Assembly (NCBI GenBank): GCA_965200155.1
Contig: CBDATR010000035.1
Coordinates: forward strand, 1-45,612
DNA: 45,612 nucleotides
Reading direction: 5' to 3'
DNA from: Nitrosopumilaceae archaeon
GTDB taxonomy: Archaea > Thermoproteota > Nitrososphaeria > Nitrososphaerales > Nitrosopumilaceae
Positions 23,915 through 33,930 of the stretch are shown one piece after another (position 1 is the stretch's first letter; each line of letters starts with the position of its first letter). Made by a program: the position numbers and the translations under genes. The notes under the pieces were generated by a model, which did not search any database, was not told where the DNA came from, and worked only from the letters and a program-made list of their open reading frames with translations.

Positions 23915-24048
23915 ACTAGAATGATAGTTCAGTGATAGGTTAAAGCGTTGTTTTTATTGAATGAGTCTTATGGCATGCGTAACCGTTTACATCTAGACGG
24001 TAAATTCATGCATAGCGCCCACCACGTCATGGAACCATTCTATGACTA

Positions 24049-25238
24049 TAGCGGTCACCATAAGTCTTGGAATGGTACAAGGGACCAGTCCTAGAATGAA
24101 CCATGTTATCGTACCGTCATCTAGAATCACTCCCTGACGCGCCGGGCCGAAGTTATGGGCGGGCTTTCCAGTTCAACATGGCGGTGAACGTTTTTCATGA
24201 CTGGAGGAAGTGGACATATTCGACTTGCCGGAATGATATCCTGGTGGCAGATATCGGCGAGCCTGTTTACGCGCGCCAGTTTCATCCATCTAATGAGGAA
24301 TGGTAATGGTGGCGCCGATTGGTTGAGTGAAATGCCATTCCGGTATGGCGAGATGGATGCATAAGGTGTGTTTATGAGGATAATTCCGACAATATACCGC
24401 GCCGCCGCAAACAGAATCATTCTGTCGTGTCCAAAGCCACCAATCCGGCGCAATTCTCGTGAATTGCACTTGCCGGGCATTGGTGTCGTGAGGACGACAA
24501 AGTCGATTGACCATTCCTGGGACATGAGCTCATTCAAAATAGTCGAGCGTGTAGACAAAAGAACTGTTCCAGGAGAGCGCGATTCATATCAACAAACGGG
24601 AGAAGCCACCTATGAGGAGTAGACGCTGACGGCAAGCATTTGGCCGTCACGGCCGGCAATCCATGACATGAGGCATCGTTCCATATTACGGGAGATACGT
24701 TACCTTCAGAGTGTTAGAACACGGAAAGGCAAGAACCGTAAGAGGAAAATCGAGAAGAAAATCACTCTATTACGACAGAAGGCCGACAATATAGCGAACG
24801 ATTCCATGAATAGAATCGTCCATGCGGTCATCAAAGGAGTTGACAAGGTAGTCATCGAGAACTTGTCAGATCATGGTGGGAACAGGAATCGTTCCATGAG
24901 AGAGAACCGCGTTGGTGGATTCTTACACAAGCTGGGACAAAAGTGTGAGGCTAGGGGGATTGAGTTAGAGGCTGTACCGGCCAAGAATACCAACCAGACA
25001 TGCCATTCTTGTGGGCATCATTCCAAGAAATCACGTTTAACTAGGGACACATGTAACCGGTCACTGTACTCAGGAGTTTCATGCCGATATCAACGCGGCG
25101 TATAGTAACCGGATTTGGCGGCAGAGCGTGTCGCCCGGGGGGCAGGGAACGGTTCCCTGCCCAACCGGAGGCGCCAGGACGGAACGCAGAGTAATGTACT
25201 GTCCAGGAGCAAGGCGCCACGTATTATGGTGACCGCTA
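24049..25238 (+). mobile_element. 1190-bp tnpB-only element with IS630-like TIRs
   Basis: 15-bp TIR TAGCGGTCACCATAA/TTATGGTGACCGCTA; TA at 24047-48 and 25239-40; reconstructed empty site GAC-TA-GTC. Confidence 0.8.
24103..25110 (+). pseudogene. tnpB: TnpB RNA-guided nuclease, frameshifted
   Basis: Fragments FQFNMAV, DWLSEMP, LHLPGIGVV, GVDADGKHLAV (RuvC-I), VVIENL (RuvC-II), NTNQTCHSCG (Zn finger) and FHADINAA (RuvC-III). Confidence 0.88.
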
Positions 25239-25464
25239 TAGTCCCATCATTCCATAATGACCGGACCGTCATTATAAAGCCCGATAGGGAATTCGCCCGG
25301 CGCGCCAAGGTATACATCATATAATCACACTGGGAGGCTACTACATGCATGGAACCACCATAGGTGGGGAGGCTACTAGGAGGCGGTTTACCCGGCCAAC
25401 CATGGGGCGGCCACACCCGCCCAACCATAGACGTCAGGACGGGATATATGGCGACAAGCCTACC

Positions 25465-25556
25465 GTATGAGTTCGCCTGTGTCTAAATTTACGCACAACT
25501 GATCGCGACAGTTAATGTGATTTGTGCACAAGATTCCGGAAGACGTGAACTCATAC
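25465..25556 (-). mobile_element. 92-bp MITE
   Basis: TIRs (one mismatch) plus TSD AGCCTACC. Confidence 0.97.
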
Positions 25557-25662
25557 AGCCTACCGTCCAGGAACGAGGCACCATGTTCAGAGTTATGATG
25601 GCCACTATAACCATCAGTGCACATGAACGTGATTTAAAAAGCAAGGAGAAATAACAATTAAC

Positions 25663-25944: not shown

Positions 25945-26535
25945 TGGAATACAGACGTGAATCAGTTGGAATCCAGTATGCGAGTCTCAGCCAAGGGTTG
26001 TATTTTCCAGTACCGGAAACAAAAGTCTATGTGGTTCCCGATCCCAATGGCGACATTTTGCGAGAGGGCGACTACTTGTTAGTATGAGTTCACGTCTTCC
26101 GGAATCTTGTGCACAAATCACATTAACTGTCGCGATCAGTTGTGCGTAAATTTAGACACAGGTGAACTCATACACTTGTTAGGCGAGATAGATGGCAACC
26201 ACTGTTTTGTAGTTAAGGTGAGAGGCCTGTTGAGAATGCTGGACGGCACACAAATGAATGGTGTGTATCATGTCTATTCCTGTGAAATGTACACAGGTGA
26301 GATTAAGGATATACCACAAGAGAGAAAGATGCTAAACAAGGTACTGGGCTTTGTGCAGAATGAGAAGGATCACATCGGCTCGGTCATTCCATGCAAGGAT
26401 GATGAGGGTTTGTTCTGGTTTGCTACCATGACACCGCATGAAATACAGAAGCGTGTTGATGAGAACCCGCTACTGACACTCAGTCCAGTGTGGGCTGAGA
26501 TTACAATGCTTGCAAGGAGGCCCGCTCATGTCTAG
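25944..26535 (+). pseudogene. hypothetical gene interrupted by a MITE
   Basis: Starts at a TAATG overlap with the wHTH gene; removing the MITE and one TSD joins MEYRRES...EGDYLL in frame to GEIDGNHC. Confidence 0.8.
26082..26173 (+). mobile_element. 92-bp MITE
   Basis: TIRs plus TSD ACTTGTTA. Confidence 0.97.
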
Positions 26536-33481: not shown

Positions 33482-33569
33482 CACGTGTTTGTGTTAGGCC
33501 AATAATTTGCATCTATAAACTTGGTTTAAACGTGTAAGGTGGGGCAAGTGATTCTGCGCATAACGTCTA

Positions 33570-33914
33570 TTGTCGGAATTATCCTCATAAACGCGCCAGA
33601 TGCATCCATCTTATCATACCGGAATGGCATTTCACTCAACCAATCGGCGCCACCATTACCATTCCTCATTAGATGGATGAAACTGGCGCGCGTAAACAGG
33701 CTCGCCGATATCTGCCACCAGTATATAATTCCGGCAAGTCGAATATGTCCACTTCCTCCAGTCATGAAAAACGTTCACCGCCATGTTGAACTGGAAAGCC
33801 CGCCCATAACTTCGGCCCGGCGCGTCAGGGAGTGATTCTAGATGACGGTATGATTATCATGGCTCATTCTAGGACTGATCCCTTGTACCATTCCAAGACT
33901 TATGGTGACCGCTA
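33570..33914 (-). mobile_element. truncated second copy of the TIR-tnpB element (left end and 5' tnpB)
   Basis: Near-identical to 24049-24393; homology stops just outside the TIR (AC-TA|TAGCGG). Confidence 0.88.
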
Positions 33915-33930
33915 TAGTACAAGGGAAATG

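Follow-up and report, generated by a model that had tools for sequence, protein, structure and literature searches.

A 45,612-nucleotide stretch of DNA from a Nitrosopumilaceae archaeon (contig CBDATR010000035.1; hereafter the window) carries, at 24049-25238, a 1,190-bp unit in which a broken tnpB gene is enclosed by perfect 15-bp inverted ends with TA on each side. The same ends frame nearly all TnpB copies of the genome, are shared with a separate family whose frames match the DDE_3 transposase domain, and are preceded, on the 5' side of tnpB, by a conserved and asymmetric flank motif. We consider it probable (about 0.72) that the unit is a decayed, non-autonomous TnpB-omegaRNA cassette in terminal inverted repeats (TIRs) of the IS630/Tc1-mariner type, moved in trans by a DDE_3 transposase and, when intact, homing through recognition by TnpB of a target-adjacent motif (TAM). 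An earlier note on this DNA, made from the sequence alone, had likewise placed the tnpB pseudogene in a non-autonomous IS630-type shell mobilised in trans, and that proposal is supported by the ends shared with the DDE_3 family and with miniature inverted-repeat transposable elements (MITEs), by the duplication of TA, and by the lack of Y1 transposase or serine recombinase matches in the assembly.

In the mechanism envisaged, the unit would have inserted at TA, duplicating it, through an IS630-like DDE (DDE_3) transposase supplied by a separate family of the same genome with the same ends. When intact, this cassette most probably functioned in the manner of IS605 elements and Fanzors. An omegaRNA would be read out through the right end into the flank, and TnpB would recognise a short motif 5' of the left end as its TAM, T-N-G+TA in the main family and TAC+TA in that of the window. 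TnpB would then cut the empty or excised allele, and recombination with a filled copy would restore or spread the element.

Anatomy of the unit and census of its ends

The window belongs to a Cenarchaeum-like Nitrosopumilaceae metagenome-assembled genome (MAG; G000) of 2.38 Mb in 51 contigs, 87.64% complete, and all statements of absence for G000 apply within that assembly. The sequencing runs that contain the window are sponge metagenomes, and the host is read as a sponge-associated archaeon. Within the window, the 15-mer TAGCGGTCACCATAA occurs at 24049-24063 (+), 25224-25238 (-), and 33900-33914 (-), three occurrences against 0.07 expected, a number reached in none of 100 shuffles of the window. 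The left TIR (24049-24070, + strand) consists of the perfect 15 bp followed by GTCTTGG, and the right TIR (25224-25238, - strand) is its sequence match. The junctions read ATGAC-TA-[ TAGCGGTCACCATAAGTCTTGG ... CGTATTATGGTGACCGCTA ]-TA-GTCCC, with ends TAGCGG...CCGCTA, and the flanking TA dinucleotides lie at 24047-24048 and 25239-25240. A second, truncated copy of the same family lies on the - strand at 33565-33918 and shows 96% identity to the unit over the latter's first 353 bp; it stops at the same left end, again followed by TA-GT, with ~350 bp of left end plus the TA spanning 33565-33916.

Between these ends, the tnpB pseudogene (24320-25166, + strand) covers residues ~101-426 of an intact relative of 450 amino acids (aa), distributed by tblastn over three frames with two in-frame stops. 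Although the gene is broken, the RuvC D-E-D triad and the zinc ribbon of TnpB are recognisable on the + strand: RuvC-I at 24616-24651, RuvC-II (VVIENLS) and the CxxC zinc ribbon within 24668-25105, and RuvC-III (HADINAA) at ~25075-25100. Conserved stretches kept in the pseudogene include GVDADGKHLAVT, VVIENLS, and FHADINAA, together with GVDADGK and CHSCGH. A Pfam search of the unit's interior returned Cas12f1-like_TNB at 8e-9, above cut-off, and OrfB_IS605 below cut-off. No transposase was found inside the unit among the open reading frames (ORFs) of the window, and the unit itself is non-autonomous. The bounded unit, the second copy stopping at the same end, the RuvC-II glutamate in VIENL, and the absence of an internal transposase had all been described in the earlier note and were recovered here.

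A search of G000 for the 15-mer gave 67 matches with at most one mismatch, against 0 for the reversed 15-mer used as control, and 105 with at most two, 94 of which are preceded by TA (TA dinucleotide frequency, 0.067). When the ends were grouped by their next 25-60 bases, three families and a set of MITEs emerged. Family A comprises units of ~1.3-1.6 kb in which left and right ends diverge directly inward of the TIR; family B, to which the window unit belongs, is represented by five left and four right ends with identical 15-bp TIRs; family C has two end types, with 17 and 13 ends; and the MITEs with the same ends measure 87-250 bp. TnpB is the sole product of families A and B. Two loci of G000, C5:39108-39579 and C23:9283-9780, are internal-deletion derivatives of family A (472-498 bp) in which ~376-470 bp from the left end and 40-120 bp from the right survive, as does the G before the left TA.

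The same association was approached from the protein side by a Pfam search for the TNB domain in a six-frame translation of G000, which yielded 30 matches. A TIR in inverted orientation lies 103-300 bp 3' of the domain in 27 of these, and both TIRs were found for 17, giving TA-flanked units of 1190-1977 bp; of the remaining three matches, one is truncated, and visual inspection revealed a degenerate TIR with TA at the other two. The TIR-framed arrangement is thus the rule for TnpB in G000. These data bear on the idea that the two repeats bounding the unit belong to separate small elements which happen to lie on either side of a tnpB remnant. The existence of 87-bp MITEs with the same ends, and the character of the region as a nest of insertions, would lend themselves to such an account. 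It is scarcely credible in view of the set distance of the TIR from the TNB domain in 27/30 matches, the both-ended units of 1.2-2.0 kb in 17/30, and the family B copies at four other sites, which align over their full length; other tnpB copies lacking these ends, which the earlier note had named as the outcome that would overturn its proposal, are not what the census returned.

No match to Y1 transposase (PF01797) and none to serine recombinase (Resolvase, PF00239) was found in the assembly, an absence that is unproven at this completeness. The TIR is nearly private to G000: an 18-mer allowing two mismatches has 91 matches there, against 0 or 1 in each of 40 relatives, and in metagenome contigs of the JGI the pattern gave a single match, in an unrelated bacterial locus.

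Every tnpB copy examined in G000 is frameshifted or contains stops, the longest stop-free stretch reaching 349 aa with a MITE insertion included. Intact copies with these ends, which the earlier note had hoped to find in the genome and its relatives, were not among them, and the intact elements examined in relatives carry ends of the IS1595 type. The window copy and a copy on contig C22 share lesions, such as a TAA stop, and occupy different sites, which indicates that dead copies kept moving. Because every examined copy of tnpB and of the IS630-type transposase is broken, the TnpB/IS630-type system in G000 looks extinct; the window element is a fossil without present function.

A candidate partner family and the duplication of TA

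Family C has the same ends (TAGCRGYCACCATAAGTCTT...) and TA flanks, and its frames read ...IVTQDESHFK..., ...VLFVDMAHLK..., and ...YPVGHPYLNPVEEFW..., matching Pfam DDE_3 in two collinear halves (positions 2-70 and 89-141 of 146). Six DDE_3 fragments were detected at five loci in G000, all split or frameshifted; the halves at C13, which lie in adjacent frames, reach 25.1 and 20.3 bits, and intact Nitrosopumilaceae DDE_3 transposases of 328 and 332 aa match C13:14752-15325 in two collinear frames (E ~1e-6, 22-23% identity). From these alignments, family C is interpreted as an IS630-type insertion sequence that has diverged and is by now frameshifted, and the assembly offers no other candidate for having moved all the elements with these ends. 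No element with both DDE and TnpB genes was seen in G000.

An intact IS630-type transposase of 409 aa, lying beside a truncated TnpB on contig C3 of the same-genus genome G008, was considered and set aside; its own TIRs differ, making it a neighbour and not a composite with these ends. At this locus (L123), the transposase, with 31-nt inverted ends, and the adjoining truncated TnpB occupy 102-1331 and 2006-2935. In G000, the stretch C24:306816-307790 matches, at 74% identity and over the full length, the largest ORF (325 aa) of L118, a locus from another genus.

Duplication of the target was sought by constructing hypothetical empty sites from 51 pairs of ends and searching for them within G000, which gave spanning matches for seven queries. 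An 87-bp MITE fills the site CTCACA-TA[MITE]TA-TGCCCATG, and uninterrupted paralogs read CTCACATATGCCCATG, with a single TA; that is, CACA-TA-TGCCC when empty against CACA-TA[MITE]TA-TGCCC when filled. This paralogous empty site demonstrates the duplication of TA. The flanks of the window unit match C9:1041-1117 at 82% identity, the filled site reading ATGAC-TA[unit]TA-GTCCCATC and the paralog ATGAC-GT-GTCCCATC, on the GTCCC side. The spacing in the paralog indicates that a 2-bp duplication, comprising the left and right TA, fits the window unit as well, and that the GAC preceding the left TA is target DNA. An orthologous empty allele was unreadable, as nine same-genus genomes share only coding stretches (65-74% identity), with no synteny across the site.

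Flank motif, a proposed change of shell, and a putative guide RNA

The bases outside the ends of TnpB units are strongly biased on one side. At the 26 left ends of family A, that is, on the 5' side of tnpB, T16, T17, and G23 precede the invariant TA (positions -5, -4, and -3). The G occurs at the same position in only 4/22 family A right ends and in 14/65 ends of family C and MITEs, so that the enrichment at left ends is significant both by itself (binomial p 3e-12) and in comparison with right ends (Fisher p 1e-6) or with family C and MITE ends (4e-9). Family B left ends read T4, A5, and C5 of 5 before TA; the window copy has GAC, at 24044-24046 (+), as its candidate TAM in the (T/G)AC form of the family B motif. 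The outer flanks differ between copies, indicating separate insertion sites, and the presence of the motif in the uninterrupted paralog of the window copy indicates that it is part of the target DNA rather than of the transposon. A preference for CTAG, which the earlier note had invoked, did not hold in general: C precedes TA at 9/17 and 3/13 family C ends, the position is variable at MITE ends, and it is not C at the left ends of family A (G in 23/26).

Intact relatives of the window's TnpB provided a second setting in which to examine the flank. The intact proteins closest to it are TnpBs of 450 aa, some of them attributed by name to Cenarchaeum MAGs, and relatives at E<=1e-20 occur in 5/81 genomes of the family, G000 included. 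A scan of viral contigs with an alignment of 11 intact relatives returned 39 pattern matches and no relatives. At least 17 copies are present in G103, a 2.21-Mb Nitrosopumilaceae chromosome (OZ242365.1). The intact elements in G103 and in G006, a same-genus genome of one contig, have TIRs of 24-34 bp that begin GGGAATTATATAC... and are flanked by 8-bp duplications, perfect at 16/22 loci. In G103, the same TIR core and 8-bp duplications also bound elements of 2.7-2.8 kb with an IS1595-family transposase (Pfam 1e-40) and a methyltransferase-HNH protein, and two more TnpB subfamilies, of 470 and 445 aa, use the same IS1595-type end core, bringing to three the TnpB subfamilies so framed in this chromosome. 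Two of its loci, L109 (179-3015) and L110 (148-2837), are IS1595-family transposons with GGGAATTATATA ends and carry as cargo a DNA methyltransferase fused to an HNH nuclease.

In a maximum-likelihood tree, built with a short search and including pseudogene fragments, six G000 fragments, the window's among them, form one clade (SH-aLRT 100). This clade is sister (support 88) to 19 proteins, seven of them checked IS1595-frame TnpBs from G006 and G103 and the other 12 database proteins with ends not examined; the 445- and 470-aa forms lie deeper. G000 itself has IS1595 transposases and GGGAATTATATA-type ends, none of them on TnpB. Most simply, the G000 copies would descend from an ancestor in which the cassette exchanged an IS1595-type shell for an IS630-type one. 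The IS1595-family transposase genes of G000 lie at C7:13053-13484, C22:6976-7427, and C13:32297-32718, one with an open 310-aa frame, and the genome also has MITEs of ~250 bp with GGAAATTATATACGAAAGTAGCAC ends.

Among the IS1595-frame TnpB loci whose duplication matches at 7 or more of 8 positions, a G stands just 5' of the left duplication in 15/16, preceded by A in 10/16, T in 11/16, and any base, and followed by T in 14/16, while the mirror C 3' of the right duplication is present in only 3/16. At locus L086, for instance, the left junction reads TACATG|ATAAAGAA, with a duplication of 8/8. When aligned on the G, the IS630-type and IS1595-type shells both read T-N-G-T.

These counts were weighed against the possibility that the left-flank bases reflect a target-site preference of the DDE transposase, or the asymmetry of the ends, and are unrelated to TnpB. 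IS630-family elements prefer bases around TA, and the left and right TIRs of family A differ at positions 6-7 (CC on the left, GT on the right), so that the ends are not equivalent. Such a preference is nevertheless an unlikely source of the motif: IS630-type elements and MITEs with the same TIRs show the G in only 14/65, family B has identical 15-bp TIRs yet an asymmetric flank, the same G stands beside the 8-bp duplication of a different transposase type in 15/16 sister TnpB loci, and a symmetric transposase dimer should not set the orientation of an element to an asymmetric target.

The one-sided motif also recalls the targets of IS605 elements, in which a conserved 5-nt motif is found on the left flank only, and TnpB is an IS605-family protein. 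Single-strand peel-and-paste of the IS200/IS605 type (IS1341 group) at the pentanucleotide TTGTA/TACTA, with the right TA being part of the element and the inverted repeat incidental, was therefore considered. This is very improbable, given that the spacing in the paralog shows two target bases duplicated, that the same 20-bp ends bound the DDE_3 element and MITEs with symmetric TA flanks, that TA is constant while the three preceding bases vary between families, and that the 87.64%-complete assembly contains no Y1_Tnp match.

Returning to a cassette moved by a DDE transposase, we think that the orientation-specific left-flank motif reflects the TAM of the nuclease, since a transposase acting on like ends cannot orient an element to an asymmetric target and since TnpB-less elements with the same ends are without the motif. 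It may be that insertions survive only at sites whose empty allele TnpB is able to cleave, or that homing propagates just these. For the guarding of excision sites by RNA-guided cleavage, raised as a possibility in the earlier note, this TAM-like motif is the one indication. A wider proposal, offered tentatively, is that the TnpB-omegaRNA cassette could be a homing module able to change carriers, having passed in Nitrosopumilaceae between DDE shells of two unrelated kinds (IS1595-type with 8-bp duplications and IS630-type with TA) and kept its T-N-G(T) left-flank signature in both, with the transposases not selecting the motif and only TAM-adjacent insertions persisting or becoming fixed. If true, this would be evidence from genomes that homing driven by TnpB is also of consequence to cut-and-paste elements of the DDE type.

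The guide RNA would be expected to derive from the 3' part of the unit. The last 120-230 bases of all families contain a common block that closes with ...GAGGCGCCA(C/T)G, the 17-50 bases beyond it including the TIR, and the 3' region is conserved in family A and B copies and in the IS1595-frame relatives. In the window this conserved region, partly overlapping tnpB and partly non-coding (25100-25223, + strand; ...GGAGGCGCCAGGACGG...GGCGCCACG), adjoins the right TIR and is a putative omegaRNA scaffold. Consensus folds of the right ends gave family-specific helices and did not fix the end of the scaffold. By analogy with Fanzors, a geometry in which the RNA runs through the TIR and target-site duplication (TSD) into the flank is taken as most likely. 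A fixed guide consisting of the TIR itself was set aside, as that geometry does not explain a conserved motif on the outer left flank.

Several results weigh against the proposed origin and mode of action of the unit. Regarding the mover, each of the six DDE_3 fragments falls singly below the Pfam cut-off of 28.6 bits, and a word-based search with a 142-aa IS630-type fragment found no longer homologue among 66 candidates; the IS630 transposase with these ends that the earlier note had anticipated would be represented, in frameshifted form, by family C, and was not found intact. Regarding excision, the empty alleles that it had also anticipated were recovered as paralogous sites only: contigs of two DNA-type and two RNA runs show no joint that removes 24049-25240, the joints seen being joins across repeats, and contigs cannot establish absence. 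Regarding the guide, the spacing between the conserved scaffold-like motif GGCGCCA(C/T)G and the end of the element varies (17-50 nt), which leaves the scaffold-guide junction uncertain, and an Rfam search (E<=1) of the window region and three related loci gave no match. RNA-library contigs match 24936-25240 at low depth, show neither strand, ends, nor freedom from DNA, and are not used as evidence. Finally, the family B motif derives from five sites only, and the transposition of dead copies with shared lesions excludes a dependence of the flank motif on TnpB supplied in cis.

The insertion site and comparison with known systems

The unit is inserted within an older, internally deleted TnpB-type element of the same superfamily. 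The left end of this outer element (24013-24046, + strand) starts at 24013 with the TIR-like TAGCGCCCACCACG and has its paralog at C9:1041-1117; its remainder (25241-25607, + strand) holds an N-terminal TnpB fragment (REFARRAKVY) at ~25260-25330 and ends in a right TIR at 25607, followed by TA at 25608-25609. Deleting the unit and one TA yields the palindrome GACTAGTC; the arithmetic behind the palindromic target of the earlier note is thus correct, and the sequence lies within the older TnpB-type remnant. The outer remnant is interrupted in turn by an unrelated 92-bp palindromic MITE (25465-25556) with an 8-bp duplication, AGCCTACC, at 25457-64 and 25557-64. Palindromic MITEs of this type, ~92-100 bp with ends GTATGAGTTCAC.../...GTGAACTCATAC, give at least 617 BLAST matches in the 2.38 Mb of G000, recur in the window at 26079-26173, and sit within many TnpB and IS630-type copies of the genome.

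Elements of the IS1341 group (IS200/IS605) are likewise tnpB-only units with the same domains and canonical D-E-D RuvC motifs. IS1341-group elements have no TIRs or TSDs, possess asymmetric ends with subterminal hairpins, and need a Y1 TnpA, whereas the elements described here have TIRs of 15-20 bp and a TA duplication, and no Y1 was found. In their TIRs, TA duplication, short MITE derivatives, and the DDE_3-type catalytic motifs of the partner element, they resemble IS630-family insertion sequences and TA-flanked MITEs. They differ from these in their cargo, a nuclease/guide-RNA cassette, in the broken and very divergent state of the partner transposase, and in showing no general preference for CTAG, a target preference attributed to IS630 itself.

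The capture of TnpB by IS630-type ends is already published and its eukaryotic parallel, Fanzor, is known, so that no new principle is at stake here. TnpBs linked to IS630-family transposons with symmetrical ends were described as the 'DDE-6' branch (Altae-Tran et al. 2023, PNAS, PMC10691335), where solo TnpBs whose ends resemble those of copies with a transposase are taken to be moved in trans, an account repeated in a 2026 OMEGA review (PMC13565253). As in 'DDE-6', TnpB lies within symmetrical IS630-family ends with its 3' end less than 250 bp from the end of the element. As described, 'DDE-6' unites a DDE transposase, a separate helix-turn-helix (HTH) protein, and TnpB in one element, several of them in Klosneuvirinae; here TnpB is always alone, the DDE transposase belongs to a separate family, and the host is a Nitrosopumilaceae archaeon. 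In the portions searched of the literature on TnpB with IS630, IS1595, archaea, Cenarchaeum, or DDE/TSD/TAM, neither a Nitrosopumilaceae case, nor an IS1595-type TnpB shell, nor an orientation-specific flank motif common to two shells was found; the supplements of Altae-Tran et al. 2023, which lay outside the search, may list such branches.

The same review, in its passage on the subject, describes TnpB in prokaryotic DDE transposons as rare and questions the benefit of the nuclease where the element already leaves a double-strand break (PMC13565253). The lineage studied here offers a natural comparison, as it combines related TnpBs in two DDE shells with TnpB-less elements bearing the same ends in the same genome. 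With an orientation-specific motif present only beside TnpB-bearing units, the effect of TnpB on the fate of DDE-mobilised elements becomes testable, and the conserved left-flank motif may reveal how the nuclease helps such transposons persist.

On the eukaryotic side, Fanzor1 and Fanzor2* occur in cut-and-paste transposons such as Mariner/Tc1 (Yoon et al. 2023, PMC10711439; PMC13565253), for which the scaffold is predicted to include the TIR and TSD, with the RNA reaching ~15 nt past the TSD (PMC10711439; PMC13565253). In both cases, a TnpB-family nuclease has been captured by transposons with TIRs and TSDs, often as non-autonomous copies; in Fanzors the guide RNA continues across the TIR and TSD to reach the flank, and the TAM includes the 5' TSD. 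The present elements differ in being prokaryotic and in encoding a TnpB of canonical size, ~450 aa in the intact relatives; the likeness described is one of architecture.

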